The notes beneath the pieces are model-generated. The model was not told where the DNA came from. It saw only the letters and a list, made by a program, of their open reading frames with translations, and ran no database searches. Below are positions 3,925 through 47,113 of a stretch of DNA of 64,000 nt, one piece after another. Position numbers and translations under genes: made by a program. Source of the DNA: Candidatus Gottesmanbacteria bacterium (lineage in GTDB: Bacteria; Patescibacteriota; Microgenomatia; UBA10105; UBA927). Within the stretch, counting starts at the first letter, position 1, and every line of letters begins with the position of its first letter. The DNA lies in NCBI GenBank assembly GCA_963701185.1, contig OY969569.1, positions 116,392 through 180,391 of the forward strand, in the 5' to 3' direction.

Positions 3925-5043
3925 ATGAAGGTTGTCGTTATCATTCCCACGTATAACGAACGAGAGAATATCATCGTGCTTCTTGACCGGCTGGAGGCGG
4001 CATTGAGAGGAGTTAAACGGCACACTATTTCCTACCTGGTCGTCGATGATACATCACCGGACGGAACCCAGGATTTGGTGAAAAAATATCAGCAGACACA
4101 CAAAGATGTTCATCTGATTACGGGTAAAAAAGAGGGTTTAGGAAAAGCATTACTGCGCGGCATGACATACGCAGCCACCCGCCTGAATGCCGATATTCTG
4201 CTTCAGATGGATGCGGACTTATCCCACGATCCCGCGTCAGCGCCGGAGTTTTTGCGGGCGCTGGACAACGGGGCCGATTTTGTCGTCGGCAGCAGATATA
4301 TCCCCGGGGGATCAATACCGGAAAATTGGGGACTCATCCGGAAAATATACAGCGTGATAGGGAACGCCATTGTACGGTTCGGCCTCTGGCACCCGCGGGT
4401 TCACGACTGGACCGGAGGGTTCCGTGCCTATACAAAAAAATATTATCTGGATAACAGGGAAAAGGTAAAAGGGTACAGCGGGTATGTGTTTCAGATTGCG
4501 TTCCTGCATAGCGCCATCCATGACGGAGCGAAGATTACCGAGGTCCCGATCCAGTTTACCGACAGACTGTTCGGGCATTCAAAGATCGCACCGGCCGAAT
4601 ATATCTTTAATATTTACAAATTCATCGCGGTTACGCGATGTGGGGAAATAGTGACCGGGCCGTTCGGGAAGTTTCTGGTCGTCGGAGGTATAGGATTTAT
4701 CCTCAATGCCGTACTTCTCGTGATATTTCATAATTGGGTACATTGGTCGGCGACATGGTCAAATCTCATCGGAGCGGGAGTTGCGATATTCTCAAACTAT
4801 AATCTCAATAATATATGGACGTTTAAAAAGAATAAAATTTCCGGTATCGGACAATACCTCGTTAAACTGCTGCAATTTTATGCGACGAGTGCTTTCGGAG
4901 TCATTGTGATACAAACAGGAATAATATGGGTAGGGGTCTCACTGCTGGGAGACAGATGGTATTTTGAATCCTTCCTGTTTGGGACAGCACTTCTCTTAAT
5001 ATGGAATTACATTATGTATTCAAAAGTAATATGGAAGAAATAA
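3925..5043 (+). CDS. GT2 polyprenol-phosphate sugar synthase (Dpm1-like) fused to C-terminal GtrA-like flippase domain
   Basis: VVIIPTYNERENI...VVDDTSPDGT, a DxD-type GT2 core. The C-terminal ~120 aa are 4 TM helices resembling GtrA (FLVVGGIGFILNAVLLVIF...W.F.K). Confidence 0.85.
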   Translation: MKVVVIIPTYNERENIIVLLDRLEAALRGVKRHTISYLVVDDTSPDGTQDLVKKYQQTHKDVHLITGKKEGLGKALLRGMTYAATRLNADILLQMDADLSHDPASAPEFLRALDNGADFVVGSRYIPGGSIPENWGLIRKIYSVIGNAIVRFGLWHPRVHDWTGGFRAYTKKYYLDNREKVKGYSGYVFQIAFLHSAIHDGAKITEVPIQFTDRLFGHSKIAPAEYIFNIYKFIAVTRCGEIVTGPFGKFLVVGGIGFILNAVLLVIFHNWVHWSATWSNLIGAGVAIFSNYNLNNIWTFKKNKISGIGQYLVKLLQFYATSAFGVIVIQTGIIWVGVSLLGDRWYFESFLFGTALLLIWNYIMYSKVIWKK

Positions 5044-6511
5044 AACGCCGCTGGTGGCTTATTCCGCTCATCCTTATTCTCGGTTTTGCCGCATACCTTC
5101 GGCTCTATAAAATTTCCGGCTACATGACGTTTTTGGGGGATGAAGGACGTGATGTATTGGTCGTCATGCACATGATCGTAAACCACAAGTTCACGCTTTT
5201 GGGGCCCACCGCGTCCGTCGGGGGGTTTTTCTTGGGCCGATTTACTATTATTTCATGCTTCCGTTTTTGTGGGCGTGGAAATTAAATCCGGTAGGCCCTG
5301 CCATCATGGTGGCCCTCTTCGGGATTGCGACCGTCTATCTCGTGTTTAAAGTGGGGAAGGAATTCGTCAGCCCGCTCGCGGGCCTTATCGCCGCCAGCTT
5401 GTATGCGCTTTCTCCGTTGGTGATCGCGTACTCCCGCTCTTCGTGGAACCCGAATCTCGTACCGTTTTTTTCGCTGCTTCTCATGTATCTTGTCTATAAA
5501 CAAAAATATCTGGCAGCAGGAGTAATTCTCGGGATCGGATTGCAGCTGCATTATTTGTTTCTCTTTATGTTTGTTGTTGTCGGGCTGTGGATTATCGTCA
5601 CAAAAGCATGGAAAAATATTGTCTTTGTTTTTCTTGGTTTTCTCATCGGCTACTCGCCCTTTCTGGCGTTTGAAGTACGCCACGGGTTTCCCAATACCCA
5701 ATCCGTCATACGGTTTCTTCTGGCCGGTAAAGATACGGGGGTGGCTCCGGGATTTTTTACCACGATTGACGATGTGGTGTTCCGGTTGTTCGGGCGGCTC
5801 CTGTACCGGCTGCCGGACGGGGCATTATGGAAGATAATCCCCGCGTGGCAGCTCTCGTTGTGGTTTGCCGGCATACGGACGACGATTTATATAAGTTTCG
5901 TCTTTCTTGTTTTATTGACGACCCGTCGGAATCGTCCTGCTCAATTATTACTTATCTGGTTCTCCACAGTCATACTCCTTTTTGGTTTGTATCAAAAGGC
6001 GATTTATGATTATTACTTCGGAATTTTATTTACTTTTCCGTTTTTGGCTCTCGGATGGATTTTGTTTACGGTTTGGCGGGTGAAGTACGGAAAAATACTT
6101 GCTCTTTTGATTTGGGCCGGACTTCTGTATTTTAACTGGCAGGGCAGGCCGTTTCTCTATCCCCCGAATAACCAGCTTGCTCAGGCGAGACTTATTGCCC
6201 AGACGGCGCTTGCTCAGACTGCAGGGAAACCGTTTAATTTCGCCCTTATTACCGGATCAAATTCCGATCACACCTACCGGTATTTTTTTGAAATTGCAGG
6301 ACAGGCGCCGGTCACGATAGAGAATACCCAGCTAGATCCCAAACGTACGTCCGTGACGGATCAACTGATTGTGATGTGCGAATTATCAGATTGTAAACCT
6401 CTGGGGCACCCGCTATGGGAAATAGCCGGGTTCGGAAGAGCGGAAATTACAGGAGAATGGGATGTGCCGTTTGTGAAAATATTCAGGCTTGTGCATTATA
6501 CTGGAATATAA
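5031..6511 (+). pseudogene. GT-C fold glycosyltransferase (ArnT/PMT_2-like, 'F.GDEGRD' subfamily) interrupted by a -1 frameshift in a G6T5 tract
   Basis: ORF 5001/5031..5285 (frame 0) and ORF 5255..6511 (frame 2) are colinear with the paralogue 40080..41603 (FLGDEGRD vs FGFDQGRD; GP.YYY block). The frames switch inside GGGGGGTTTTT at 5220-5230. Single-base restoration gives ...SVGGFFLGPIYYYFMLPF.... Confidence 0.7.
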
Positions 6512-6512
6512 T

Positions 6513-7265
6513 ATGGGTAAGATAGATCTTTCCGTGGTCATTCCTGCATATAACGAGGAAACGAATATTCGTTTGGGGGCTCTGGATAAAGTCTCGCGGT
6601 ATTTGGAACATCAGTCATACAAATGGGAAGCAATTATTGTGGATGACGGATCAACTGACGAAACATCAAGACTTCTTGATGCGTTTGTGTCGGCAAACCC
6701 CGGGTTTTCCGTCATCCATAATCCTCATCAAGGAAAAGCCTCAACAGTTATTACCGGGATGCTTGGAAGCCGCGGCAATATTGTGCTGTTTACGGATCTT
6801 GATCAGGCAACTCCCATAAACGAACTGGCGCATGTCCTTCCGTGGTTTGAAAAAGGGTATGATGTCGTGATCGGATCACGAAGCGGCCGCAGGCAGGGCG
6901 CGCCCGTCACGCGGCGGGTGATGGCACGGGGGTTTATGATACTCCGGGGCGTGATGTTGGGTCTTCGTGGCATTGTGGATACGCAATGCGGGTTTAAAGC
7001 GTTCAGGAACGACGTGGCCAAAGATATTTTTCACCGTTTGAAATTGTATGGAGAGAGGCACACGGTCAGCGGATCCATGGTAACGGCAGGGTTTGATATA
7101 GAGGTGCTGTTTCTGGCACGGAAACTGGGGTATAAGATTAAAGAAGTGCCGGTCGAATGGCATTACGTGGAAACCCGCCGCGTGAATCCCGTCATAGATT
7201 CAATTCAGGGACTGACGGATATTCTTAAGATCCGCATGAATGCATGGCGGGGGCTATATGGCTAA
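6513..7265 (+). CDS. GT2 polyprenol-phosphate glycosyltransferase (Dpm1/Alg5-like)
   Basis: DLSVVIPAYNEETNI...IIVDDGSTDETS...DLDQATP. Soluble ~250 aa GT2, similar to 3925 and 48150. Confidence 0.85.
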   Translation: MGKIDLSVVIPAYNEETNIRLGALDKVSRYLEHQSYKWEAIIVDDGSTDETSRLLDAFVSANPGFSVIHNPHQGKASTVITGMLGSRGNIVLFTDLDQATPINELAHVLPWFEKGYDVVIGSRSGRRQGAPVTRRVMARGFMILRGVMLGLRGIVDTQCGFKAFRNDVAKDIFHRLKLYGERHTVSGSMVTAGFDIEVLFLARKLGYKIKEVPVEWHYVETRRVNPVIDSIQGLTDILKIRMNAWRGLYG

Positions 7266-8415
7266 AAAATTGTTTATCGGCTATCTACTCGCCTCAGTCG
7301 GACTCTTCTTGTATTCCTACACGCAGGTTGATTTGGGCCTGACACTGTCGCGAGCCAACATCTATCAGACTCTCGAAAAAGGTTTCCAGCATATCGGGTA
7401 TTTTAACCGGCCGTTGTCCGCAACGCTGTATCTTATTCTTGTTGCAGCATTTTTTGTCATGTACGGTATCGTATTGAATGTCATAAAGAAAAATATCATA
7501 TCTGTCAAAAGTTTCTGGTGGCTTGTCGGCATTACCACTGCAATTCTTATTTTCTCCTACCCCGCGTTTTCCTATGACATGTTCAATTATATGTTTACGG
7601 CAAAAACCGTACTTCTCTATCACAAAAATCCGTACGCTGTTATTCCGTTGCAGTTTGCGGGGGTGGAACCCTGGCTTTCGTTCATGCACTGGACGCATTT
7701 ACCCAGCGCCTATACGCCGCTGTGGATTCTCCTCACTCTCCCCGCATATCTTATGGGGTTCGGGTATTTCCTGCTGATTATGTGGAATATAAAAATACTG
7801 GTTGCCGCCGCCTACATTATTACGACGATCTACATAGGGAAGATTCTCGGCAAACTTGAACCGGGGAAACGGTTGATGGGTATGGCGATTTTTGCCCTGA
7901 ATCCTCTTGTTATTTTTGAATCACTCGTCAGCGGGCATAATGACATGGTGATGATGGCATTCGTCATGATTGCCTACTATTTATATATTACTAAAAAACG
8001 CTGGGCGGCGTGGTTTGCCCTTTCATTATCCGTCGCTCTCAAACTGATGACGATATTTTTACTTCCGGTCTTTTTTGTGGGTTGGCAGCGGAAAATTGCG
8101 CTAGGCGCTATGATCATCGGATTCTTATTGGTGGCTACTCAAAGGGAGATTTTAGGCTGGTATGTGGTGTGGCTCGTGCCGTTTTACGCCTTGCTGCCGT
8201 CGGTTGAGTGGGCGCTCATCGCCGGAAGCGGCCTATCGCTGGGCCTCCTTCTTACCTACGCCCCATTCCTGTACACCGGTGCCTACGATCCGCCGGTCCA
8301 AACCCTAAAATTTTGGGCAATGGTTGTACCGGTCATTCTTGCGTTCTGTTGGGTTGGTATTCGTAAACTCAGTTACCACGCAAAAAGACCACACCATTTA
8401 GATATAGGTTATTGA
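7258..8415 (+). CDS. Polytopic membrane protein, putative GT-C-like (paralogue of 44496..45578)
   Basis: About 10 predicted TM helices. The SYPAFSYDMFNYMFTAKT...HKNPY block is shared with 44496 (SYPALTYDVFNYIATAKV...HENPY). The 8-nt overlap with the upstream GT2 suggests co-translation. Confidence 0.5.
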   Translation: MAKKLFIGYLLASVGLFLYSYTQVDLGLTLSRANIYQTLEKGFQHIGYFNRPLSATLYLILVAAFFVMYGIVLNVIKKNIISVKSFWWLVGITTAILIFSYPAFSYDMFNYMFTAKTVLLYHKNPYAVIPLQFAGVEPWLSFMHWTHLPSAYTPLWILLTLPAYLMGFGYFLLIMWNIKILVAAAYIITTIYIGKILGKLEPGKRLMGMAIFALNPLVIFESLVSGHNDMVMMAFVMIAYYLYITKKRWAAWFALSLSVALKLMTIFLLPVFFVGWQRKIALGAMIIGFLLVATQREILGWYVVWLVPFYALLPSVEWALIAGSGLSLGLLLTYAPFLYTGAYDPPVQTLKFWAMVVPVILAFCWVGIRKLSYHAKRPHHLDIGY

Positions 8416-8449
8416 CTGTCAATAGATAGTAAATGGTATAGTATAGGGA
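8414..8449 (+). promoter_or_regulatory. Candidate sigma70-type promoter for small ORF 8450
   Basis: TTGACT at 8414-8419 overlapping an 11-nt palindrome TTGACTGTCAA, then TATAGT/TATAGG-like -10 candidates about 19 nt downstream. It is the only >30-nt non-coding gap in the first 28 kb. Confidence 0.35.
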
Positions 8450-8701
8450 ATGAAAAAAGCAGTGAGAGTTCTTTCTGGTGATGATGTGAGGGATATTTTG
8501 GATGATAAACTACGGGAAACCGGGTTGGATGAGGTGCCGAAAAGACTCGATATTCTTGATAAAATTTTGACATCAGTTGATAAACTCGTCGGTGAAGTGA
8601 AAGGATATCGGGAAGAACAAACGCTCAATGCTGATAAACTCGCAAAGCACGACGACGTTATCGGAAAAATTGCGAAACATCTCCATTTGCAGGCCCTCTA
8701 A
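8450..8701 (+). CDS. Small acidic hypothetical protein (83 aa), no recognised domain
   Basis: Clean ORF with its own upstream promoter-like sequence. Helical, Asp/Lys-rich (DILDDKLRETGLDEVPKRLDILDKIL). It interrupts an otherwise continuous glycosyltransferase array. Confidence 0.45.
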   Translation: MKKAVRVLSGDDVRDILDDKLRETGLDEVPKRLDILDKILTSVDKLVGEVKGYREEQTLNADKLAKHDDVIGKIAKHLHLQAL

Positions 8702-8722
8702 CGCTTCAGGTATAATTTGAGT

Positions 8723-10216
8723 ATGCGCAGGAACATGGTGCTTCTGATCGTTGGACTCGTAGTACTCTATGCGGTAACCCGCCTCACAAACCTCACGAAG
8801 CTCCCGATATTTACCGATGAAGCCATTTATATCCGCTGGTCCCAAATCGGCAGCCGTGACGCAAACTGGCGGTTTATTTCCCTTGTTGACGGAAAGCAGC
8901 CGCTCTTTACCTGGATTATGATGATATTCCTGCGGTTAATCCGCGATCCGCTTGTGGCAGGCCGGATGGTATCGGTTATGGCAGGATTTTTTACGACGAT
9001 CGGAATGTGGTTCACCGCGCTGGAGCTGTTTAAACGTAAAAACATAGCTTTCATTGCAAGCTTTTTGTATATTGTCATTCCGTTTGGCCTTTTCTACGAC
9101 CGCATGGCCCTGTATGACTCGTGGGTTGCGGCGTTTTCCATTTGGAATTTATACTTAGCGATACTCCTTGTGCGCCGTGTGCGGTTGGACGCAGCGTTAC
9201 TTTTGGGACTGACATTGGGCATGGGAATGCTCAATAAGACGTCAGGGTTTTTGAGTTTATATATGCTGCCGGGCACGCTTCTACTGTTTGACTGGAACAG
9301 AACCGGCAGAATGAGGCGGTTTTTGCGATGGATAGGACTTGCCGCTGTTGCGGCGGTCATTTCGCAGCTGCTGTACAGTGTCCTTCGGCTTTCCCCGCTT
9401 TTCGGCATGATAGAACAAAAAAATGCATTGTTTGTCTATCCGCTGAAAGAATGGCTTACGCATCCGTTTAATTTTCTTTTAGGCAATATTCACGGGCTTT
9501 TTGACTGGGCGATTCATTACCTTACCTGGCCGATTTTTACGGCGGCATTACTTTCCGGTTTCTCGCTGTGGAAGCGTACACGGGAGAAATTACTGTTGTT
9601 GGGTTGGTGGTTTGCACCGTTTTTTGCTCTCGCCGCCGACGGAAGAGTGCTGTATCCGCGGTTTATTCTGTTTATGATACTTCCGCTCATAATCCTGGCT
9701 TCAGCGGCCGTGGACTGGATGTGGAACCGGTTTAAAGGATCCGTCTGGCGTTGGGTATTGATCGGCGTCCTGTTCTTCGGAAGTTTCTATACGGATTTCT
9801 ATATTATTACCAATCCGATATATGCGCCGATTCCCAATGCCGATGCCGGACAATATATCAACGATTGGCCGGCCGGGTGGGGTATTCCCCAGGTGAATGC
9901 ATTTTTATTGGGTCAGGCGGAAAAAGGAAAAATTACGGTATATACGGACGGTACATTCGGCCTTCTTCCGTATGCGGTAGAGCTGTATATGGTAGACAAC
10001 CCGAACGTTACGATCAAGGGGATATATCCGATACCGGGCGACATACCGAAGGAGATGACCGATCAGGCAAAGAAAAATCCGACATTCATGATTTTTAACC
10101 AGAAGCAAAATGTCCCGCCGTGGCCGTTGACGCTTATTGCCCAGTATCAAAAGGGTCAGAATACCGTAAAGTTCATGCGATTGTACGAGATACTTCCTCA
10201 AGCACCTAGTCTATGA
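8723..10216 (+). CDS. GT-C fold glycosyltransferase (PMT_2/ArnT-like, 'FTDEAIY' type)
   Basis: About 12 TM helices. First periplasmic loop has a DE motif (LPIFTDEAIYIRW). A TATAAT at 8709-8714 sits immediately upstream. Start codon is ambiguous (TTG 8717 / ATG 8723 / ATG 8735). Confidence 0.6.
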   Translation: MRRNMVLLIVGLVVLYAVTRLTNLTKLPIFTDEAIYIRWSQIGSRDANWRFISLVDGKQPLFTWIMMIFLRLIRDPLVAGRMVSVMAGFFTTIGMWFTALELFKRKNIAFIASFLYIVIPFGLFYDRMALYDSWVAAFSIWNLYLAILLVRRVRLDAALLLGLTLGMGMLNKTSGFLSLYMLPGTLLLFDWNRTGRMRRFLRWIGLAAVAAVISQLLYSVLRLSPLFGMIEQKNALFVYPLKEWLTHPFNFLLGNIHGLFDWAIHYLTWPIFTAALLSGFSLWKRTREKLLLLGWWFAPFFALAADGRVLYPRFILFMILPLIILASAAVDWMWNRFKGSVWRWVLIGVLFFGSFYTDFYIITNPIYAPIPNADAGQYINDWPAGWGIPQVNAFLLGQAEKGKITVYTDGTFGLLPYAVELYMVDNPNVTIKGIYPIPGDIPKEMTDQAKKNPTFMIFNQKQNVPPWPLTLIAQYQKGQNTVKFMRLYEILPQAPSL

Positions 10217-11742
10217 AACGGGACAAGAGAATCATTTTTACCCTATCGATGCTCGTTGTATTCGGTTTTGCGTTTTTCATTCTGTCAGGGCTTTTCCGCC
10301 GGGGTTTTTTCGTATCCGATGACGGCGGATGGATGATTATACGGCTTAGTGCGTTTTTCCAAAGCCTGCGGGAAGGCCAGTTCCCGGTCCGTTTTCTGGG
10401 GAGGCTCAATTACAGTTACGGATACCCGGTTGCCAATTTCCTGTATCCCGGCTTTATGTATATCGGATCACTGATTCATGTGATCGGATTTTCATTCATC
10501 GATTCCGTCAAAATAATGATGGGCGCTTCCGTTCTCGTCGGCGCGTATTTTACGTTTTTGTGGCTGAAACAGTATTTCCGCGCTATGGAAAGTGCGGTAG
10601 GCGCAATCTGTTTTGTGAGTGCCCCGTATGTGCTGTTTGATCTGTATACACGAGGCTCCGTCGGGGAACTTCTGGCGATGGCGTGGGCGGCAGTGGGGTT
10701 GTACTCGATTGCAGCGAAAAAATCATGGCTCCTGTCGCTCTCTGTGTCGCTTCTTATCGTGAGCCATAATTCGCTCGCGGTTCTGTTTTTGGGATTTTAT
10801 GTTTTGTATATAACGGTACTTGGCCGGTGGCGCGATTATTGGCTCATGTTTTTTCTAGGTATCGGCATGGTGATGTTTTTTTGGTTCCCCGCCCTCTATG
10901 AACGCAAATACGTGGTGTTCGACGCGGTACAAATCGCCAATCCGGCCGCATATTTTATCAGGACATTCAATGCGATGCTTTTAGGATTTGCAGGGATACT
11001 GGCGGCGTGCACCGCGGTATTTACCGGAAAGTCGCTCGCGAAAGAAAAAATATTTTTTCTAATTTCTTTTGCAATCATATTGTTTATGGTATTGCCGGTC
11101 AGTGCGTTGCTGTGGCGGTCGGACCTTCTGATACGCATATTTCAATTTCCGTATAGATTTTTGTCTCTGACGGCGTTCATAGGCAGCTGGCTGGTGGGGT
11201 ACGTCCTCACCCATCATCGGACATTCGTACGGGTTTTATTGGCGGTTCTGTTTGTTGCTTTCAGCGCATGGTCGGTTGTATCTGCGCTCTCAAAAGTCCA
11301 ATACACCGATTCGCCGGAAGGGTATTATGTAACGAATGAAGCCACAACGACAGTTCGTGATGAATATATGCCGCGATGGGTACGTGAAAAACCTACCCAG
11401 CGGGCATATCAGAAACTAATTTTTTATCAGGGGGCGGGTGTGTTTGATGTTAAAAAAATTTCAACTCAATCCATAGACGTTACGGTTACTGCAAACGAGG
11501 ATAGTGTCGTACAAATAAACACGGTATATTATCCCGGATGGGGAGTTTCAGTTGATGATGCGGCCGTTCACATTGATTATAAAAATAAGCAGGGACTCAT
11601 GCGGGTTTCCGTCCCGCAGGGGACCCACCGTCTGGTTGCCGGTTTCAGGGAGACGATTTCCAGGTTTTTGGCCGACAATATTTCATTGGGATTTTTGATT
11701 TGGTACGGTATAGCTGTACTTGTTAAAAAACGACGAAGATGA
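10213..11742 (+). CDS. Polytopic membrane protein, 'HD...GYGYP' family, with YfhO-type C-terminal module
   Basis: N-terminal TM, then DDGGWMIIRL..REGQFPVRF..YSYGYPVANFLYP. C-terminal YYPGWGVSVDDAAVHIDYKN...VSVPQGTHRLV. Paralogous to 11739, 41634 and 45575. Confidence 0.55.
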   Translation: MKRDKRIIFTLSMLVVFGFAFFILSGLFRRGFFVSDDGGWMIIRLSAFFQSLREGQFPVRFLGRLNYSYGYPVANFLYPGFMYIGSLIHVIGFSFIDSVKIMMGASVLVGAYFTFLWLKQYFRAMESAVGAICFVSAPYVLFDLYTRGSVGELLAMAWAAVGLYSIAAKKSWLLSLSVSLLIVSHNSLAVLFLGFYVLYITVLGRWRDYWLMFFLGIGMVMFFWFPALYERKYVVFDAVQIANPAAYFIRTFNAMLLGFAGILAACTAVFTGKSLAKEKIFFLISFAIILFMVLPVSALLWRSDLLIRIFQFPYRFLSLTAFIGSWLVGYVLTHHRTFVRVLLAVLFVAFSAWSVVSALSKVQYTDSPEGYYVTNEATTTVRDEYMPRWVREKPTQRAYQKLIFYQGAGVFDVKKISTQSIDVTVTANEDSVVQINTVYYPGWGVSVDDAAVHIDYKNKQGLMRVSVPQGTHRLVAGFRETISRFLADNISLGFLIWYGIAVLVKKRRR

Positions 11743-24641: not shown

Positions 24642-24660
24642 ATACGTTATACTAACATAT

Positions 24661-35241: not shown

Positions 35242-35276
35242 GCTATAATGATAGGGTTATCATACATGACAGGCAT

Positions 35277-38476: not shown

Positions 38477-40083
38477 AAAAAACACTTATATTTTTATTTC
38501 TGATTCTTGTTATTGCGGCGGGGTTCCGGTTCTATCAGCTGGGAAGTGTCCCTCCCAGTCCTGATTGGGATGAGGCAGCGCTGGGGTATAACGCATACTC
38601 CATTCTGAAAACCGGCAGGGATGAATACGGAAACTTCCTGCCGTTGTCCATCCGGTCGTTTGATGATTATAAGCCGCCGCTGTACGTATATCTCACGGTG
38701 CCGTCCGTGGCCTTTTTCGGATTGTCCGTATGGTCGACAAGATTCCCTTCGGCTGTCATGGGGCTTGTGGCGGTGCTGGGGACATATTTTCTGGTAAAAG
38801 AATTATTAAAGAATAATGCGCAGGCACTGCTCTCCGCACTCTTATTGGCCATTTCGCCGTGGTCCGTACAGTTTTCCCGCATTGCATTTGAGGCCAATAC
38901 CGGAGTTACCCTGAATATCTGGGCGGTGACGGCATTTCTTGCGGGTCTCAAAAAACGTGTGTTTCTTCCTGTTTCAGCGGTGTTATTTGCGCTCGGGTTT
39001 TATGCATACCACAGTGAGCGGATATTTTTACCGCTGCTTCTTATTATCCTTGCGGTCGTGTACCGCAACCAACTGTTTGTCAAAAAGCACAGGATGTCAT
39101 TGATTGTGAGTATTATCCTCGGTATTCTTGTGGCCGCACCTCTTATACCGGTTGTTTTTAACCGGACGGCGCTTTTGAGGCTGCGCGGGACAAGTTCGTT
39201 CACGGATCAGACGGGGCTCCTGTCCCGCGATATTACGAAACTTGAACAGGATCAACGGGCAGGGGACCGTATCGGTCAGCTTCTGGATAACAGAAGGATC
39301 GTATTTGTTAAAACCGTTGCCGCAGGATATCTCTCGCATTTCTCGCCGAAATGGCTGTTTTTAACGGGTGATAACCAGCGGCACCATGCTCCGGATATGG
39401 GGCTTTTATACCTCTGGGAGCTGCCGTTTCTGATGTACGGAATATACAGGGTGTTGAAGTATGGAAAAGGTCAGGTAAGCGCTGTTCTTATCGGGTGGCT
39501 CCTTATTGCGCCGGTTGCCGCATCTCCCACGACGGGTTTGCCGCATGCCGTCCGCACACTTGTTTTTCTGCCGGTTTTTCAGATATTTACAGCGGTAGGA
39601 TTAGCACATGTTCTTGTCCGACGAAAATTTCTCATGTCGCTGTACGGCATATGTATCGTTTTTAATCTTTTCTATTACTGTGATATGTATTTCGTTCAAA
39701 TGAATCCGGAGGTTTCTGAATACTGGCAGTACGGATACAAAGATGCGGTGGCGTTTACCGAAAAAGTCAAAACCAAATACCAAAAAATTGTCGTGTCCAC
39801 GACACTGGAACAATCCTATATGTTTTTCCTTTTTTACACGAAGTACGATCCGGCAAAGTATCTGGCCGCCGGAGGGACGCAGTCGGGGAGTTTTGAAGAG
39901 GCCAAGAATCATTTCGACAACTATGAATTCAGGAAAATCGATTGGCCCCGGGAACGGAGAGATGGTACGATTCTCTATGTCGGCGATCCTAAAGACATGC
40001 CGCACGGGAATGTGAGGAACTTTACCTTTTTGGACGGTAAACCGGCAATAGAAATGGCCGACCGGCCCAACGGAGCCCTATGA
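38473..40083 (+). CDS. GT-C fold glycosyltransferase (PMT/ArnT-like), tandem trio
   Basis: PDWDEAALGYNAYSILKTGRDEYG, LAISPWSVQFSRIAFEAN. Start at ATG 38473 overlapping the previous stop (ATGA). Confidence 0.7.
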   Translation: MKKTLIFLFLILVIAAGFRFYQLGSVPPSPDWDEAALGYNAYSILKTGRDEYGNFLPLSIRSFDDYKPPLYVYLTVPSVAFFGLSVWSTRFPSAVMGLVAVLGTYFLVKELLKNNAQALLSALLLAISPWSVQFSRIAFEANTGVTLNIWAVTAFLAGLKKRVFLPVSAVLFALGFYAYHSERIFLPLLLIILAVVYRNQLFVKKHRMSLIVSIILGILVAAPLIPVVFNRTALLRLRGTSSFTDQTGLLSRDITKLEQDQRAGDRIGQLLDNRRIVFVKTVAAGYLSHFSPKWLFLTGDNQRHHAPDMGLLYLWELPFLMYGIYRVLKYGKGQVSAVLIGWLLIAPVAASPTTGLPHAVRTLVFLPVFQIFTAVGLAHVLVRRKFLMSLYGICIVFNLFYYCDMYFVQMNPEVSEYWQYGYKDAVAFTEKVKTKYQKIVVSTTLEQSYMFFLFYTKYDPAKYLAAGGTQSGSFEEAKNHFDNYEFRKIDWPRERRDGTILYVGDPKDMPHGNVRNFTFLDGKPAIEMADRPNGAL

Positions 40084-41603
40084 AGAAAAAATTTATTGTT
40101 CCCATTACTATTATCGTTTTTATCTGGGGGATAGCGCTTCGTGCGATAGAGGTAGTCAACGGAAATTATCTTTTCGGATTTGACCAGGGTCGCGATTATC
40201 TGGCTGCCTACAATATCCTCGTCGGTCATAAATTTACCCTCATCGGCGCGGAAGTCGGGGCAGGGGCCGCAGGATTGTCGCATCTGTTCCATGGTCCCGG
40301 ATATTATTATCTTATTGCACTCATGGAACTTATGTTTCGGGGAGATCCGTACGGCGGTTTACTTCTTATGTTCTTTTTTGGCGTTTTGGCGCTTTTGGCT
40401 GTTTTTATTACAACGCGAAAAATGTTCGGTCAGGCCGTTATGCTCGTCACGTTGTTGTTATTGGGTATTTCACCGCTTATTGTTTCTCAGTCGCGGTTCA
40501 TGTGGAATCACCACCCGTCCACATTTTTCATCGTTATTGCATTGTACTTTGCATACATGATTACGAAAAAGCCGCGGATATATGCGCCGCTTGCGGTGTT
40601 TACTGCGGGCTTTATCTATCACTTTGAGCTTGCCATCGCCGTACCGTTTGTGATCGCGCTTGTTCTGGCACTCCCTCTGGTATTCCGCATAAAGGACGTA
40701 CGGACATATGTGTACAGCGTAATCGCCGGTGTGGCGGCGTTTTTTCCGTTTCTTTTATTTGAATCTCGGCACGGGTGGATGGCGATCCGTTCTCTTCTGG
40801 TATATACGACACCCCAGGGACCCGTAGGGAAAGACGTATGGTACCTGCGCATCATCGATCATATGGGTCCGTATATTAACAGCGCCGCAAATTCGTTTCC
40901 GAATGAGCAGGGATTGCTGCCGTTCTATTTTTATAAAGGTCTCTCGCTTGCGCTGGTTGTCGTCCTTATTATGTTGGCCTGGAGAGTGAAGGATAAACTG
41001 CACAGGAAGTTTTTCCGGTTTCTGCTGCTTTTGACGGCCGCTACGTACGGCGTGATGCTGCTTCTCGAGAACATGATTTGGGATTACTATCTTATTCATA
41101 TACACGTCGTATTCATATACATATTTGCATATAGCCTGATACGCAGTTTCCGCATGCTTAGGAAATCATTGTGGTCGCTTTTTGCTTTCGGCGCATTGAG
41201 TATTTTTCTCGTATCCATGATTTCAGCCTCTGCCTGGCGCATGAAAATAAGCTACACATACGATCTTCATGATTTCGGGGGTGTTGAAAAAATTAAAGGG
41301 AAGAAGGCCGCGATTGATTACGTATATCATGATGCAAAAGGTCAGCCGTTTTCAGAATTTACTTTTATGGCGCCTATTTATACGTACCCGTACGATTATC
41401 TGTTTACAACCTATGGGAAACAGGCCTATGGCTACGTGCCGGGGCGTGAGAAAAAAGGGCTTGTGTATCTCATTATCGAGCCGGACGCCTCCAAACCATG
41501 GACGTACAAAGGATGGCTGGAGACGGTTATTGTCGGGGGAGATATTATCAATACCGCTACCATTTCGGCCGGACAAATCATACAGAAGCGAATATTTCCA
41601 TGA
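40080..41603 (+). CDS. GT-C fold glycosyltransferase ('FGFDQGRD' subfamily, intact paralogue of 5031)
   Basis: NYLFGFDQGRDYLAAYNIL, GPGYYYLIAL. 507 aa polytopic protein. Confidence 0.6.
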   Translation: MKKKFIVPITIIVFIWGIALRAIEVVNGNYLFGFDQGRDYLAAYNILVGHKFTLIGAEVGAGAAGLSHLFHGPGYYYLIALMELMFRGDPYGGLLLMFFFGVLALLAVFITTRKMFGQAVMLVTLLLLGISPLIVSQSRFMWNHHPSTFFIVIALYFAYMITKKPRIYAPLAVFTAGFIYHFELAIAVPFVIALVLALPLVFRIKDVRTYVYSVIAGVAAFFPFLLFESRHGWMAIRSLLVYTTPQGPVGKDVWYLRIIDHMGPYINSAANSFPNEQGLLPFYFYKGLSLALVVVLIMLAWRVKDKLHRKFFRFLLLLTAATYGVMLLLENMIWDYYLIHIHVVFIYIFAYSLIRSFRMLRKSLWSLFAFGALSIFLVSMISASAWRMKISYTYDLHDFGGVEKIKGKKAAIDYVYHDAKGQPFSEFTFMAPIYTYPYDYLFTTYGKQAYGYVPGREKKGLVYLIIEPDASKPWTYKGWLETVIVGGDIINTATISAGQIIQKRIFP

Positions 41604-41633
41604 AAAAAATACTGAAGAGTCCGTTTTTTCTGG

Positions 41634-43205
41634 GTGCTTATTTTTTCATTATTGCCGCTTGCTTCACTATTTCATATAGGGTTGCCCGCGACGCATGACG
41701 GACAGGACCACGTAGCCAGAATTGCCAATTTTTACCGGTCGCTGGCAGAAGGGAATATCATTCCCCGGTGGGCGGGGTCTCTCAATTGGGGCTACGGACA
41801 TCCGATCCTCATGTTTTTATATCCGCTGCCGTCGTACATTGCATCTTTTTTTCATGCTCTGGGCCTTTCATTTGTTGACAGTACGAAGCTCGTGTTCGGG
41901 GTAGCCCTCATTGCCAGCGGACTGACGATGTATATGTGGATGAATGCTGCCTTTGGAAAAAAGGCGGGCATTGTCGGGGCGCTTTTGTATGTTTTTGCGC
42001 CGTACCGGTTTGTGGATTTATATGTGCGGGGTGCCATAGGGGAGCATGTGGCATTTATTTTTCCGCCGCTCGTACTGTATTTTCTCCGGAGACATTCCAT
42101 AATCGGCGTTTCATTTTCCCTTGCCGCGCTTATTCTTTCCCATAACGCCATAGCCATTATGTTCCTGCCGATTATAGGACTGTATGCTTTTTATCTTTTA
42201 CTATTTGAAGTGAAAAATAGGTGGTCGTTTATAGTTTATTGCTTATTGTCCGTCGTATTGGGTTTTGCCCTGTCCGCTTTCTTCTGGATACCCGCGTATT
42301 TTGAGGGTAAGTATACGCTTCGGGATATTGTTACGGCAGGAGATGTCGTGAAACGGTTTGTGCCCTGGTCATGGTTTCTGTATTCGCCGTGGAATTACGG
42401 ACTGGGTGAAACGATGTCAAAGTCATTGGGATTGATGCAGTGGTTTGGAGTTGCTGCCGCGATCTGGGCAATATGGAAGACGAAACAAAAAAACATACGG
42501 ATTCTGCTTGTATCCTTTTTGATAATTTTACTCGGATCATTATTTATTATGACCTCGGGGTCGCGGCCCCTGTGGATTGCCGTTACGATTTTGCAAAAGT
42601 TCCAATTTCCATGGCGCTTTCTTTCAGTATCGGTATTTGCCGCGTCAGCACTGGGAGGAATAGCATGTAGCCGGGCAAAAAAAGCATTCATTATTCCTTA
42701 TTCATTATTCATTATTCTGATTTCCGTCGGTATGTGGCACCCGAAAGCGTATATTTTCCATGATGAATCTTTTTATTCCGGCGTCTATGCCGGGACAACC
42801 GATACCGGTGAGAGCAGTCCGATCTGGTCGGTCCGATTTATGGAACATACCGCCCCGGCTCCGCTTGAGGTTATAGACGGTTCGGCGGTGATAACTGACG
42901 GCTTCCGTTCATCGACGGCGCATGAATATACGGTACAGGCCGCCAAACCTACACTCCTTCTTGAAAATACCGTGTATTTTCCTGACTGGAATGTATATGT
43001 AGACAAAACGGTTATCCCTATTGAGTACCAGAATCCGAATTACAGAGGGTTAATTACGTTTCAGGTTGCGGCAGGAACCCATAGCGTCCGGGTAGTATTT
43101 GAAAATACGAAGTTGCGCACTGTAGCCGAGAGGATTTCGCTCGCCGCTCTTGCTATAATCGCAGTGTCAGGTGTGGTACCTATCTTATGGCGGAAAAGAA
43201 CGTAA
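41634..43205 (+). CDS. Polytopic membrane protein, 'HD...GYGYP' family. The N-terminus is possibly disrupted; an upstream ATG at 41600 is in another frame
   Basis: PATHDGQDHVARIANF..EGNIIPRW..GYGHPILMFLYPLPSY. Carries in-frame repeat copy A at 42226-42251 (VYCLLS). See the finding on the T6 tract at 41642-41647. Confidence 0.55.
   Translation: MLIFSLLPLASLFHIGLPATHDGQDHVARIANFYRSLAEGNIIPRWAGSLNWGYGHPILMFLYPLPSYIASFFHALGLSFVDSTKLVFGVALIASGLTMYMWMNAAFGKKAGIVGALLYVFAPYRFVDLYVRGAIGEHVAFIFPPLVLYFLRRHSIIGVSFSLAALILSHNAIAIMFLPIIGLYAFYLLLFEVKNRWSFIVYCLLSVVLGFALSAFFWIPAYFEGKYTLRDIVTAGDVVKRFVPWSWFLYSPWNYGLGETMSKSLGLMQWFGVAAAIWAIWKTKQKNIRILLVSFLIILLGSLFIMTSGSRPLWIAVTILQKFQFPWRFLSVSVFAASALGGIACSRAKKAFIIPYSLFIILISVGMWHPKAYIFHDESFYSGVYAGTTDTGESSPIWSVRFMEHTAPAPLEVIDGSAVITDGFRSSTAHEYTVQAAKPTLLLENTVYFPDWNVYVDKTVIPIEYQNPNYRGLITFQVAAGTHSVRVVFENTKLRTVAERISLAALAIIAVSGVVPILWRKRT
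42226..42251 (+). repeat. Copy A of the dispersed 'GTTTATTGCTTATTGTCC' repeat (in-frame inside the 41634 gene)
   Basis: Exact 18-mer at 42234-42251, encoding VYCLLS. Flank cgtttata resembles the extended consensus GATTAyTG. Confidence 0.9.
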
Positions 43206-43957
43206 AACTTTCGGTCGCAATTGCCGTTTATAACGAAGAGAAAAATATCGAAGCGTGCCTCGCGTCGGTCCGCGGTTTGGCCGACGAAATCATTGTGGTG
43301 GACGGCGGATCAGGCGACCGCACGGTTTCCCTTGCCCGCGCATTTGGTTCCCGCATCATAGAGACGGATAATCCGCCGATGTTTCATTTAAATAAGCAAA
43401 AAGCACTGGATGCCTGCTCGGGGAGCTGGATACTTCAGCTTGATGCCGATGAACGGGTGACTCCCGCATTAAACAAAGAAATACGTTCGGTTATCAATGC
43501 CGGGTCGTCCGACGTTAACGGCTACTTTATCCCGCGGAAGAATTATTTTTGGGGACATTGGATGCGTAAAGGCGGGCAGTATCCGGATTATGTCATGCGG
43601 CTTGTGCGCCGCGGCAAGGCTCATTTTCCCGCCAAAAGCGTCCATGAACAAATTGATGTCATCGGTGAACCGGGGTACCTCACGGAGCCGATGGATCATA
43701 TTTCCTACCGGACCCGCGAAGATTATTGGAGGAAGGCGGAGAGTTATACAACGCTTGCCGCCATGGAAATGAAAAGAGACGGAGTCGGCAAAAACCCGTG
43801 GACGTGGTTTACCTACAATATTATAAAGCCGCAAATGACATTCCTTTCGTTGCTTATCCGTCATAAGGGATTTATGGACGGTTGGTACGGGTTGGTATTT
43901 GCCTACTTTTCCGCCCTGCATTTTCCGATTACGTATAAAAAATTCCTAAAGTTATGA
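43187..43957 (+). CDS. GT2 glycosyltransferase (paralogue of 15482 and 17256)
   Basis: LSVAIAVYNEEKNI...DEIIVVDGGSGDRT...LQLDADERV. Confidence 0.8.
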   Translation: MAEKNVKLSVAIAVYNEEKNIEACLASVRGLADEIIVVDGGSGDRTVSLARAFGSRIIETDNPPMFHLNKQKALDACSGSWILQLDADERVTPALNKEIRSVINAGSSDVNGYFIPRKNYFWGHWMRKGGQYPDYVMRLVRRGKAHFPAKSVHEQIDVIGEPGYLTEPMDHISYRTREDYWRKAESYTTLAAMEMKRDGVGKNPWTWFTYNIIKPQMTFLSLLIRHKGFMDGWYGLVFAYFSALHFPITYKKFLKL

Positions 43958-44493
43958 AAAAGAAAGTGATCATCTTGTTGATTACTGTTTATTGCTTATT
44001 GTCCACTGTTTCTTCAGTTTATGCCGACTATGTTCTTCCGTACCCGTCCTACATGCCTGGAAATAAACTATACCGGCTCACGAGGATTGTTGATCAATTA
44101 AAAAAGTATTGGTATCGGGGCAACATTGCGCAGACGAAGTATCACCTTGCATTGTCGGATAAGTATCTGGTCGAGGCGAGTACCCTCATGGAATATAAGC
44201 AGTACCTTCTCGGAGCTGATGCGCTGCGGAGATCCGATGCGGAGTTTGCGACGCTACCGGCATACGTTGCCGGCGCCAAAAAAGAAGGAGTCGACGTGCA
44301 TGAGCTGCAGCTTCTTCTTGCGGCTGCAGCCGGGAAACACAGGGAAGTATTAACCGGGCTTCTCCCCGTTGTCCCGCCGGACTTTACCTGGACTCCGGAG
44401 AAATCCAAGCCGACGGCGCTGCCTTTAAGCGACATAATCTCAGCATCAGTTGGTATTAGACAACGTATTGCCAGTGCAACAGGATCCCTATAA
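43954..44493 (+). CDS. Secreted hypothetical protein (signal peptide, 179 aa)
   Basis: MKKKVIILLITVYCLLSTVSSVYA|DY is an Sec-type signal peptide. The mature part is helical and Ala-rich, with no recognised domain. The h-region of the signal peptide is encoded by repeat copy B. Confidence 0.55.
   Translation: MKKKVIILLITVYCLLSTVSSVYADYVLPYPSYMPGNKLYRLTRIVDQLKKYWYRGNIAQTKYHLALSDKYLVEASTLMEYKQYLLGADALRRSDAEFATLPAYVAGAKKEGVDVHELQLLLAAAAGKHREVLTGLLPVVPPDFTWTPEKSKPTALPLSDIISASVGIRQRIASATGSL
43980..44005 (+). repeat. Copy B of the dispersed repeat (26 nt, GATTACTGTTTATTGCTTATTGTCCA)
   Basis: Matches the right inverted repeat of the 50850-51286 cassette at 25/26 positions. Encodes LITVYCLLS of the signal peptide. 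Confidence 0.9.
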
Positions 44494-44495
44494 TC

Positions 44496-45578
44496 ATGGC
44501 ACTCATCGCAGTGTTACTATTTTTAGCGGCAATAGGCATCGTAGGAGTTTTTTCCTACGGGTTTATTGATCCGAATTTGGTTTTATCCGCACACGTCATG
44601 TTTTCCCGGATTGCGGACCGGCCGGCGGCGGCCGTCATATTTTTCGTTATCCTTCTTGTTCTGTTTGCCGCGTACCTGTATTTTCTGAAGCACCCGCCGA
44701 AGTTTTGGGTGATACTGGCGGCGGCCGTCATGCTGGTTTTCTCGTATCCGGCTCTTACCTATGACGTATTCAACTACATCGCTACTGCCAAAGTTACATA
44801 TACATACCATGAAAACCCGTATATCATCATGCCGGTCGAGATCCCGAACGAACCCAATCTGGCATTTACAAGGGCGGCAAATAAAACAGCACTGTACGGG
44901 CCTGTGTGGATCGCATTGAGCGCCGTCCCGCATTATCTGGGGATGGGCAGCGTATGGCAGACAATCATTGCATTTAAGGCCATGAATTTGGCTGCGTATC
45001 TGGGGTTTTGTTATCTCATATACCGGGTCACTAAGAAGACGGCGAATGTTATTTTTTTTGCCGCCAATCCGCTGGTTTTGATAGAAGTGCTTATGAACGG
45101 ACATAATGACATTTACATGATGCTTGCGGCACTCGGAGGCCTGTTGTTGTGGCGTCAAAACAGGAAAGTCAGCGGATTTTTACTCTTCGCTGTTTCATGG
45201 CTGGTAAAGGGCGCGACCATAGTTCTTCTCCCGCTGTTATTTTTGAAAAATATATCAACGGAACGTCTTCTTCTCATTGCTTATTGCTTATTGTCCTTCG
45301 TTTTTTTTGTTATTGCCCCGGTCCGTGAAGAACTCTATCCATGGTATGCAGTCTGGCTTATTGCATCCGCGTCGCTGTTGCCTCTGAAGAACCACCGGTT
45401 CATATTCGGATTCACTGTCGTATTGTCTTTTGCGCTGGAGCTGCGTGCACTCCCGTATATGTGGATGGGATATTATGAAGGACCGGGACCGGCGCTTCGG
45501 CTGATACTCACTCTTGTTCCCGTTGTTGTGTATGCAGCATATACCGGGTTCCGGTATGTCTCTCAAAGAAAAACATGA
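44496..45578 (+). CDS. Polytopic membrane protein, putative GT-C-like (paralogue of 7258..8415)
   Basis: SYPALTYDVFNYIATAKVTYTYHENPY. Contains repeat copy C as an apparent 6-codon insertion relative to 7258. Confidence 0.5.
   Translation: MALIAVLLFLAAIGIVGVFSYGFIDPNLVLSAHVMFSRIADRPAAAVIFFVILLVLFAAYLYFLKHPPKFWVILAAAVMLVFSYPALTYDVFNYIATAKVTYTYHENPYIIMPVEIPNEPNLAFTRAANKTALYGPVWIALSAVPHYLGMGSVWQTIIAFKAMNLAAYLGFCYLIYRVTKKTANVIFFAANPLVLIEVLMNGHNDIYMMLAALGGLLLWRQNRKVSGFLLFAVSWLVKGATIVLLPLLFLKNISTERLLLIAYCLLSFVFFVIAPVREELYPWYAVWLIASASLLPLKNHRFIFGFTVVLSFALELRALPYMWMGYYEGPGPALRLILTLVPVVVYAAYTGFRYVSQRKT
45279..45296 (+). repeat. Copy C of the dispersed repeat (GCTTATTGCTTATTGTCC, 17/18)
   Basis: Encodes AYCLLS. 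Immediately followed by a T8 homopolymer (45300-45307). Confidence 0.85.
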
Positions 45579-47113
45579 AAAAAGGAATAATTATTTTCAT
45601 GATGCTGTGTATTCTTTTTGCCGTGTGGCCGCTGTTTGGCAGAAACTATATCCCGACGCACGACGGAGAATACCACATCATCCGCATTGTCGAATTTTCC
45701 CGTATGCTGGGAGAAGGCTACGTAGTGCCCCGATGGGCGCCGGATATGAACAGCGGCTACGGGATACCGATTTTTAATTTCCATTACCCCCTCCCGAACT
45801 ATATCGGTTCATTTGTCCGGGTTTTCACCGGGGATGCAGTGCGTGCGTTCCAGATGAGCATGGGAGTAGGGTACATCGTGCTTGCCGCAGCTGCATATTT
45901 TTGGTTACTCACCCTGTTTGGCGCCCTTCCGGCTGCGGTGGGAGCCATCGTTGCCGCATTCGTCCCGTACGTTTTTGTTGATATGTATGTGCGGGGTTCT
46001 ATCGGTGAAATCTGGGCGACTGCGTTCTTATTTATATGCTTCTATCTCCTGGAAAAGAAAAAATTTGTTTGGTTTGCCCTTGCATACGGACTCCTCATCC
46101 TCTCGCATAACATCATGGCAATGCTCTATACGCCGTTTTTGTTGGGATATGCGCTGATCCGGAATAAAAAGGCAGCCCTGTGGATGCTGGGCGGAATTGG
46201 TATGTCCGCTTTTTTCTGGATGCCTGCGCTTCTGGAATCCAAATACGTGGTCGGCCTTAATACCGTAAATTTCCGGGAACATTTTGTACAGCTGTACCAG
46301 CTTCTTATCCCATCGTGGGGTTCAGGGTTTTCCGGAAGCGGGTCATTCGGCAATACAATATCATTTCAAATAGGTCTCGTGCCGATACTTGCCTTTGTCG
46401 GAGCATTATATTCATCACGTAAAAAAATTCTTCTGTATTTTATTTTCTTTTTTGCCGTGTGCGTTCTCCTTATGTTGCCCCTGTCGCTGCCGGTATGGGA
46501 ATTTATCAAGCCCCTTGCGCTCATGCAGTACCCGTGGAGATTGCTGTCGTTTGTTATTCCTATAGCCGGTTTTTGTGCGGCTTTTTGGGTATCGTTGATG
46601 AAACGGAAATGGCCAGGGATAGCAATCGCCATTCTTGCAGTTATTTTTGCCGCTTCTTACGCACGTCCGGTTCTCTATGAACCCAGAAATGAAGCCTATT
46701 ATATGTCGCGGGCCAATTTTACCGATGGCACATCATCCATGGGAAATAGTTTTTCTACAATCTGGACGGGGTGGAAGGATACGCGCCCGAAAGATCCGAT
46801 CGTTGTGGAAAGCGGGCAGCTGAGGAAGATCCACCAGATGCGGTATCTTAATAAAACATTTGATGTCATTATGGTCGGCACAGGGCGCGTTACCGTCAAT
46901 ACGCTTTATTTTCCGGGGTGGACAGCAACTGTAGACGGGAAAAACGTACCCATCGATTATCAGAAAGACGGTATTATTCATTTTTCCGTTCCTGCAGGAG
47001 CACACCTGATACGCGTTATTTTTACCGATACGCCGATCCGAAATGCGGGAAACATCATTTCGATCGCCAGCGTGGCTGTCCTGGCCGTTTTAGGGTATAC
47101 TTCTTTACAATGA
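45575..47113 (+). CDS. Polytopic membrane protein, 'HD...GYGYP' family paralogue
   Basis: PTHDGEYHIIRIVEF..GEGYVVPRW..GYGIPIFNFHYPLPNY. C-terminal LYFPGWTATVDGKNVPIDYQKDGIIHFSVPAGAHLIRVIF. Confidence 0.55.
   Translation: MKKGIIIFMMLCILFAVWPLFGRNYIPTHDGEYHIIRIVEFSRMLGEGYVVPRWAPDMNSGYGIPIFNFHYPLPNYIGSFVRVFTGDAVRAFQMSMGVGYIVLAAAAYFWLLTLFGALPAAVGAIVAAFVPYVFVDMYVRGSIGEIWATAFLFICFYLLEKKKFVWFALAYGLLILSHNIMAMLYTPFLLGYALIRNKKAALWMLGGIGMSAFFWMPALLESKYVVGLNTVNFREHFVQLYQLLIPSWGSGFSGSGSFGNTISFQIGLVPILAFVGALYSSRKKILLYFIFFFAVCVLLMLPLSLPVWEFIKPLALMQYPWRLLSFVIPIAGFCAAFWVSLMKRKWPGIAIAILAVIFAASYARPVLYEPRNEAYYMSRANFTDGTSSMGNSFSTIWTGWKDTRPKDPIVVESGQLRKIHQMRYLNKTFDVIMVGTGRVTVNTLYFPGWTATVDGKNVPIDYQKDGIIHFSVPAGAHLIRVIFTDTPIRNAGNIISIASVAVLAVLGYTSLQ

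Follow-up and report, generated by a model that had tools for sequence, protein, structure and literature searches.

The subject of this study is a 64,000-nt stretch of the genome of a Candidatus Gottesmanbacteria bacterium (contig OY969569.1, positions 116,392 to 180,391), referred to here as the window and numbered from its first letter, and in particular the range 3925–47113, which holds a dense array of genes for membrane glycosyltransferases of the GT-C type. Inspection of the open reading frames (ORFs) together with Pfam searches indicated that the entire window is glycan-biosynthesis DNA. Within the range, Pfam assignments and an all-versus-all blastp comparison identified 20 polytopic GT-C-family membrane proteins, accompanied by eight GT2s, one GT4, one Wzx and a small conserved protein with a single transmembrane (TM) helix. 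Summed, the GT-C genes amount to about 11,145 codons, or about 77% of the 43.2-kb range, and all but one of them (19 of 20) are intact. The blastp comparison sorted the proteins into six families, named A to F, with identities of only 20–40% inside a family. An earlier reading of the letters alone, hereafter the original prediction, had listed groups of six, three, four, four and two membrane paralogues; these groups were reproduced exactly, together with one singleton (8717) that it had not listed. Its total of about 22 GT-C-like proteins is reached only if 52390 (minus strand) and 56949, which lie outside the range and remain unassigned, are added to the 20. The linkage of the genes by ATGA stop/start overlaps was also borne out, since 15 same-strand junctions in the range overlap by 4 bp, 14 of them through ATGA and one through GTGA.

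Family A, recognized by the motif DE..GYNAYS..TGRDE and by Pfam matches to PMT_2 and PMT, comprises the proteins at 25563–27170 (+), 27171–28886 (−) and 28922–30607 (+) and a tandem trio on the plus strand at 35277–36896, 36893–38476 and 38473–40083 (the third ORF is also given from 38392). Family B carries the motif F.GD(E/Q)GRD and is found at 5031–6511 (+; FLGDEGRD; frameshifted, the longest intact ORF being 5255–6511), 23373–24779 (−; PMT_2, 37.5 bits; an orthologue 75% identical in the related locus L008) and 40080–41603 (+; PMT_2, 33.0 bits). The four YfhO proteins of family C, at 17912 or 17996 to 20191 (+), 21198–23390 (+), 30604–33000 (+) and 32935–35241 (−), scored 75.8, 79.4, 83.0 and 77.1 bits respectively against a PF09586 cut-off of 28.5. 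Family D (PTPS_related, motif HD...GYGYP) lies entirely on the plus strand, with two adjacent members at 10213–11742 and 11739–13337 that are 27–31% identical to the other two, at 41634–43205 (PTPS_related, 31.4 bits) and 45575–47113. The GT87/MptA-like family E consists of two paralogues, 7240–8415 (+; GT87, 27.8 bits against a cut-off of 25; 10 TM helices) and 44496–45578 (+), and family F is the PMT_2 singleton at 8717–10216 (+; FTDEAIY; 46.9 bits). Three of these genes, at 23373–24779, 27171–28886 and 32935–35241, stand alone in inverted orientation within plus-strand runs. Their convergent ends overlap or abut the neighbouring gene (23373–23390, 27170/27171, 32935–33000), their divergent gaps measure about 35 bp, and they keep the same orientation in the nearest relative.

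The GT-C identity of these 20 proteins, which had been proposed by likeness to PMT, ArnT and YfhO, is supported by hidden Markov model (HMM), profile and fold evidence. Fifteen of the 20 exceed a Pfam gathering score for PMT_2, PMT, YfhO, PTPS_related or GT87, and the others were placed by profile–profile alignment with hhalign. The alignment of family B with family A brought the Asp motifs into register and had a probability of 98.6% (E 7e-16). Family D aligned with YfhO at 98.3% (E 2.5e-14) and family F with family A at 89.7%, and the alignment of family E with family A gave no significant match. When compared with the Protein Data Bank (PDB), the family A profile matched both ArnT (5ezm) and yeast Pmt1 at E 0.01. 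Sequence searches of the PDB with the family B and D profiles gave no match; for this reason a fold search was used for family D, and the assignment of family B rests on its alignment with A. Families D and E were both modelled by AlphaFold2 as bundles of helices, and the GT-C fold was recovered in three dimensions as well. The model of 45575–47113 belongs to the GT-C_A class and has a C-terminal beta-sandwich followed by the last TM helix. That of family E (pLDDT 83.3) matched ALG3 (16.9), ALG6 (16.3), GPI mannosyltransferase I (15.8) and PimE (15.0), which places 44496–45578 in the GT-C_B class (PimE/ALG3/MptA-like). Precomputed Pfam annotation gives MptA_B_family for family E and its homologues, and the family thus joins an HMM match to a GT-C_B fold, as GT87/MptA-MptB/PimE-like enzymes do.

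A second line of evidence comes from the first extramembrane loop. An acidic residue just after the first TM helix is invariant inside each family of the window, and among homologues (19–305 sequences per family) it is conserved in 86–100%: D32/E33 in 95–96% for family A (n = 305), D35 in 92% for B, D88 in 86% for C, D30 in 98% for D, D90 in 96% for E and D34/E35 in 100% for F (n = 19). Judging from the positively charged N-termini, this loop would face outward. By hydropathy, each of the 20 proteins has 6–12 hydrophobic segments. Matches to GT-C families and the acidic motif, the two features on which the original prediction had staked itself, were therefore both found. In addition, five of the six family A proteins match PF02366 (PMT) with 22.7–43.1 bits against a cut-off of 22.7, the exception being 27171, and this match together with the invariant D32/E33 of the first loop qualifies family A as PMT (GT39)-like. 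No MIR domain was matched by Pfam in any family A protein. Bacterial Pmt proteins are not known to carry MIR either, so that its absence rules out the eukaryotic type of PMT only.

The enzymes that would supply lipid-linked sugars to these GT-Cs are few. At least five Dpm1-like GT2s had been counted in 43 kb, and we found three among the eight GT2s of the range (3925–5043, 6489–7265 and 13309–14052, all on the plus strand), the other two of the window (48150 and 50052) lying beyond it. A profile built from these five short GT2s matches the Pyrococcus dolichol-phosphate mannose synthase (DPMS; 5mlz) at 9e-45, ArnC at 1e-30 and GtrB at 1e-27, which points to candidate polyprenyl-phosphate-sugar synthases of the GT-A fold encoded in the same locus as the GT-Cs. 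Their best NCBIfam matches are ArnC, AglJ, PgfS, dolichyl-phosphate hexose transferase and PpgS, all of them below the equivalog cut-offs. Depending on whether the range or the window is considered, three or five synthases stand against 20 GT-Cs, a GT-C to synthase ratio of 4–7:1; adjacent GT2/GT-C pairs occur at 3925/5031, 6489/7240 and 24586/25563, and pairing into units of one synthase and one GT-C was not found across the array.

The first of the short GT2s had been described as a fusion of a GT2 with a GtrA domain. Both domains are present (PF00535 and PF04138), and the reading as a synthase fused to a flippase is the part that we reinterpret: residues 1–370 of 372 align with residues 23–372 of the Pyrococcus furiosus DPMS 5mlz (E 5e-37), in the layout of a type III archaeal DPMS, that is, a catalytic GT2 followed by a four-helix TM domain in a single chain. 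This TM domain, the sole GtrA-family domain present, shares its Pfam family with GtrA. By its sequence, then, the protein at 3925–5043 has a known polyprenyl-phosphate-hexose synthase architecture, with no evidence of a separate flippase component. The candidates for flipping lipid-linked monosaccharides are two Wzx proteins, the GtrA-family domain being located inside a synthase. The predicted Wzx flippase was confirmed at 14028–15485 (+; Polysacc_synt_3, 182 bits; MOP flippase family in NCBIfam), and a second one lies at 48803–50065.

The remaining GT2s of the range are of other kinds. Three soluble GT2s follow the first Wzx on the plus strand (15482, 16300 and 17220, together spanning 15482–17999), and two further GT2s are found at 24586–25566 (+; Glyco_tranf_2_3 type) and 43187–43957 (+). 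The proteins at 15482–16387, 17220–17999 and 43187–43957 are soluble paralogues whose closest solved relatives are GmaR (E 1.6e-28), a flagellin O-GlcNAc transferase, and SunS, a peptide S-glycosyltransferase; the GT2s at 16300 and 24586 are instead similar to rhamnosyltransferases, GlfT1 or enzymes of the EpsD type. The only GT4 of the range lies at 20188–21201 (+). The small conserved protein (43954–44493, +; 179 aa) has a single TM helix at its N-terminus and matches DUF5667 weakly, and its orthologues, 49–72% identical, occupy the same place between a GT2 and an MptA-like GT-C in the related loci L034, L056 and L080; it may be an accessory subunit.

Upstream of the array, nucleotide-sugar genes occupy positions 15–3915 on the plus strand (RmlB, cut by the window start, an RmlD-like protein, UDP-glucose 6-dehydrogenase and a short-chain dehydrogenase/reductase (SDR) of the dehydratase/epimerase type; Pfam and NCBIfam), and RmlA and RmlC lie directly upstream of this left flank on a near-identical Logan contig, L001. 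Over 7,555 bp, L001 differs from the window by no mismatch and a single gap (99.99% identity), which lies in the one defective GT-C gene. Within 5221–5231, after GGGGG, the window has a run of five T at about 5226–5230 where L001 has six, and the missing T frameshifts the gene at 5031–6511, whose product is an intact protein of 493 aa in L001 and a 418-aa ORF from 5255 in the window. The difference may reflect an assembly error in the homopolymer, variation within the population or a phase-variable site.

How old is this array, and is it peculiar to one genome? When species-representative genomes were scanned with the profile of family A, at least 589 sites were confirmed; the best 80 hits, in 78 distinct loci, were kept. 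The lineages named in the titles of the retained loci are all Microgenomates (Gottesman-, Curtiss-, Levy-, Woese-, Chisholm-, Davies- and Collierbacteria). Many loci (L002, L004, L006, L009 and others) are titled "uncultured Gammaproteobacteria" or "uncultured Pseudomonadales" and yet have Microgenomates-like gene content and synteny; these titles are probably those of mislabelled public records of metagenome-assembled genomes. All 78 related Microgenomates loci contain the same families at 2.3–6.3 GT-Cs per 10 kb, compared with 3.4 per 10 kb over the 64 kb of the window when all 22 candidates are counted. The nearest relative, Ca. Gottesmanbacteria MFD01689.bin.c.3 (OY970230.1, a chromosome of 1.09 Mb), is collinear with the window from 15482 to 50843 and has 15 GT-Cs in that segment against 15 in ours. 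Most of them are one-to-one orthologues with 60–75% identity, next to 68–83% for the GT2 and GT4 neighbours. The loci L008 (with L080), L056 and L034 are collinear with the window. Among more distant contigs, a Levyibacteriota one and three others retain the backbone GT2-E-F...D-D-GT2-Wzx-GT2-GT2...YfhO in that order, interrupted by variable GT-Cs. The hyper-expanded array that had been predicted is real, and an expansion private to the source genome is ruled out by the synteny with OY970230.1 and by the comparable density in the related loci.

The same comparison dates the paralogues. For 16 of the 20, homologues in other genomes are clearly closer than any paralogue in the window, and a blastn comparison of the window with itself gave a sole match, of 80 bp at 75%. 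The trio at 35277–40083 had been taken as the product of recent local duplication; its members are 29–37% identical to each other and show no DNA similarity, and their orthologues elsewhere reach 60–75%. Recent tandem duplication is rejected on these grounds for the array as a whole, in which no paralogue identity exceeds 40%. Because paralogue identities are low, DNA repeats are absent and closer homologues are found in other genomes, the duplications are ancient and the expansion a lineage trait. Diversifying selection on the GT-Cs, also proposed, is not indicated as a pervasive force, since the locus is collinear between relatives and the GT-Cs are conserved like their neighbours. Paralogue content among relatives consists mostly of one-to-one syntenic orthologues, with few variable positions (27171, 35277 and 40080). 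As judged from these sequences, the locus is old and syntenic and is most likely maintained under purifying selection.

What would a cell do with so many GT-Cs and so few synthases? With moderate confidence, and on sequence and fold comparisons, we lean towards a lineage-conserved core envelope-glycan factory that would draw on polyprenyl-phosphate sugars at the outer membrane face. Such a mechanism is the natural reading of the GT-C families, the loop acid, the adjoining synthase-like GT2s and the MOP flippases. What we observe are the assignments to families and folds, the conserved motifs, the synteny and the age of the paralogues; the following scheme infers the donors and acceptors, the sequence in which the enzymes act and the expression of the genes. 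Cytoplasmic enzymes would produce nucleotide sugars (the dTDP-rhamnose pathway, UDP-glucuronate and others). The soluble GT2s and GT4s may then build a lipid-linked oligosaccharide for the Wzx proteins to flip, and single sugars would be loaded onto polyprenyl phosphate by the three to five DPMS/ArnC/GtrB-like GT2s. Finally, about 20 outer-face GT-Cs of both structural classes (ArnT/PMT/YfhO-like and PimE/ALG3-like), each presumably with its own acceptor and linkage specificity, would use lipid-linked monosaccharides to lengthen one envelope glycan or a few and to add branches and decorations. We favour a multi-step extracytoplasmic assembly line of this kind as a closer description than independent modules adding one sugar each, because of the GT-C to synthase ratio, the one-to-one orthology and synteny, and the presence of both GT-C classes.

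Several observations weigh against this interpretation. No initiating phosphoglycosyltransferase, Wzy polymerase, ligase or LytR-CpsA-Psr (LCP) enzyme was recognised in the window, and a stand-alone GtrA flippase gene is absent, the tight packing of the genes leaving no space for one. The match of family A to the protein-O-mannosyltransferase model PF02366 leaves room for protein acceptors, and the three GmaR/SunS-like GT2s hint, by their sequence relatives, at direct transfer of sugars to proteins or peptides in the cytoplasm. In OY970230.1 the genes corresponding to 27171 and 40080 are only 47% and 46% identical, 35277 is absent and one extra B-like gene is present; because a few positions differ in this way between close relatives, some GT-Cs may be variable decorators and not steps of a fixed line. 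Also, the TM counts given above come from a crude hydropathy script.

The original prediction had placed these genes in a combinatorial battery of independent three-component systems, each made of a GT2, a GtrA and a GT-C, with distinct acceptors and with the GT-Cs under diversifying selection. The candidate GT-A synthases and the GT-Cs of that model stand; the paired units do not, and no dedicated GtrA flippase is seen. Each type of component has at least a formal representative in the locus, GT2 and GT-C genes are often adjacent (the three pairs named above), and close relatives differ at a few GT-C positions through replacement, gain or loss. In Lactococcus lactis a single flippase is known to serve several pairs (PMC8035078). 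Nevertheless, we regard the battery as rather unlikely, given that only three to five Dpm1-like synthases face 20 GT-Cs, that the single GtrA-family domain is an integral TM domain of a DPMS-type synthase, that the paralogues are ancient and that most GT-Cs are one-to-one orthologues conserved like their neighbours.

Another explanation would make the locus mainly a protein O-glycosylation machine, in which PMT-like and related GT-Cs would attach mannose or other sugars to secreted, S-layer, sortase-anchored or pilin proteins on their way out of the membrane. The PF02366 matches of five family A proteins, with their Asp-Glu pair in loop 1, speak for it, as do the equal nearness of the family A profile to yeast Pmt1 and to ArnT and the presence of GmaR/SunS-like GT2s. 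Pili and sortase substrates are, moreover, abundant in candidate-phyla-radiation (CPR) genomes (PMC6744442). The same folds and motifs, however, act on lipid and glycan acceptors in ArnT, AftA/B/D and YfhO, family E resembles mannosyltransferases of lipoglycan and N-glycan synthesis, the array is set among genes for polysaccharide synthesis (rml, ugd, Wzx, GT4 and GT2), and no genes for candidate substrate proteins were found in the window; we consider this explanation improbable, though still a live rival. The single frameshift at 5031–6511 and the origin of the sequence from an uncultured metagenome-assembled genome might suggest that the array is artefactual (a chimeric assembly, contigs collapsed or duplicated, or pseudo-enzymes largely decayed and without function), but this is essentially refuted by the repetition of the gene order in independent assemblies (L001, 99.99% over 7.5 kb; L008, L080, L056 and L034, collinear), the 19 intact ORFs, the conserved catalytic Asp and the lack of DNA repeats.

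Beyond 47113 the conserved block continues on the plus strand to about 50.8 kb (46918–50843) with a GT4, the Dpm1-like GT2 at 48150, the second Wzx and the Dpm1-like GT2 at 50052, collinear with L080. From there the GC content falls to 0.40–0.44, from 0.45–0.49 before, and the genes present are no longer those of the nearest relative. According to Pfam, the distal part (50885–64000) contains, in order, an ORF of the 23S_rRNA_IVP family, a GT4, the protein at 52390–54330 (−), a GT2, a methyltransferase, a GT2, the protein at 56949–58631, a GT4, a DegT, a methyltransferase, a GT2 (−) and an epimerase. The first of these (50885–51262, +; 125 aa) scored 108 bits with the 23S_rRNA_IVP four-helix-bundle family and more weakly (29.9 bits) with a bAvd-like one; it occupies a 438-bp gap at the boundary between the conserved block and the variable part of lower GC, with no reverse transcriptase gene nearby. 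The segment 52390–59800 (about 7.4 kb), which runs from the protein at 52390 to the second of the two GT4s, has the lowest GC of the window. In the nearest relative, the stretch examined, extending to about 4.7 kb past the orthologue of 50052–50843, contains no counterpart of it, and the DegT and the GT4 orthologue are adjacent there in reversed order. This segment looks like a strain-variable, possibly acquired cassette. Its first protein (52390–54330; 646 aa, about 13 TM helices) has homologues 31–34% identical in a few other CPR loci, belongs to no Pfam or NCBIfam family (a faint DUF6541 match has E 0.26) and gave no significant hhalign match to family A; possible roles are those of a polymerase, a ligase or a further GT-C. 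The protein at 56949–58631 has 8 TM helices and a weak PMT_2-like match, and Pfam searches at E values up to 5 returned nothing usable for either of the two.

Other features of the window are minor. A soluble ORF of 83 aa (8450–8701, +), with a faint coiled-coil match to DUF7310, lies in the 302-bp gap between the GT-C genes 7240–8415 and 8717–10216. An Rfam scan of the window gave no matches, and scans of 20–40 kb for promoter and terminator consensus sequences did not exceed shuffled sequence (24 against 32±6.8 and 29 against 24.3±5.3).

About 33 kb of GT-C genes in one locus correspond to about 3.4% of the 995,214-bp contig, despite the stripped-down nature of CPR genomes, and since relatives keep the same arrangement, a surface glycan built outside the cytoplasm would be an uncharacterised core trait of Microgenomates. 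A literature search returned no published description of such a locus, and in the library searched no paper pairs Patescibacteria or CPR with GT-C. One Microgenomates genome paper remarks only on "29 glycosyl transferases" (PMC7143001), and a study of protein-family content reports unannotated membrane families enriched in Microgenomates (PMC6744442). What sets the locus apart from known systems is the scale of the array, the missing one-to-one pairing, the CPR host of about 1 Mb and the conservation across candidate phyla. More tentatively, and as a possibility that we ourselves find doubtful, Microgenomates and perhaps other CPR bacteria might build a complex lineage-specific glycan or lipoglycan almost wholly outside the cell on a conserved line of about 20 GT-Cs, supplied with a handful of polyprenyl-phosphate monosaccharides, as a functional analogue of mycobacterial lipoarabinomannan (LAM) and arabinogalactan with an independent origin. 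If so, glycan machinery would take up 3–6% of a genome of about 1 Mb and would be central to the episymbiotic lifestyle (attachment, host recognition or phage evasion). The locus supplies concrete targets for metaproteomics, glycomics and heterologous expression, as well as many naturally diverged GT-C paralogues with which acceptor specificity could be studied.

The principle of multi-component transmembrane glycosylation is well established (PMC8035078, PMC5836110, PMC11127046). In Gram-positive bacteria it is represented by CsbB/GtlA with GtcA and YfhO/GtlB, by the Csd/CflA systems of L. lactis, in which several GT-A/GT-C pairs (CsdAB, CsdCD and CsdEF) share the flippase CflA, and by GacI/J/K/L (PMC8035078, PMC5836110). 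The array resembles these systems in combining a putative GT-A-fold polyprenyl-phosphate-sugar synthase with outer-face GT-Cs, in its YfhO members and, like the loci for rhamnose-rich cell-wall polysaccharides of Gram-positives, in its adjoining rml genes. It differs from them in having 20 GT-Cs of six families in one locus instead of one to three, in lacking one-to-one pairing of synthase and GT-C and a stand-alone GtrA, and in its CPR host of about 1 Mb. Likeness to the ArnC/ArnT and GtrA/GtrB/Gtr* systems is seen in the matches of the short GT2s to ArnC and GtrB, in that of family A to ArnT and in the genes for Ugd and an SDR enzyme, which adjoin the first GT2/GT-C pair; on the other side, no NCBIfam equivalog cut-off is reached, lipid A is not expected in CPR, and the array far exceeds a single GT-C. 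The type III DPMS of P. furiosus is matched over its catalytic and four-helix TM domains by 3925–5043, which, unlike the archaeal enzyme, is bacterial, and the other four short GT2s have no TM domain. The extracytoplasmic assembly of lipomannan, LAM and arabinogalactan in Corynebacterineae, which relies on Ppm1, PimE, MptA-C, EmbA-C and AftA-D, provides the remaining comparison. Identity to these mycobacterial enzymes is only 7–14%, and no DprE-type or phosphoribosyl pyrophosphate (PRPP)-dependent arabinose genes were seen in the window. The mycobacterial genes concerned are spread across more than 4 Mb of genome, whereas the array described here is a single compact locus in which most genes run in one direction and overlap.

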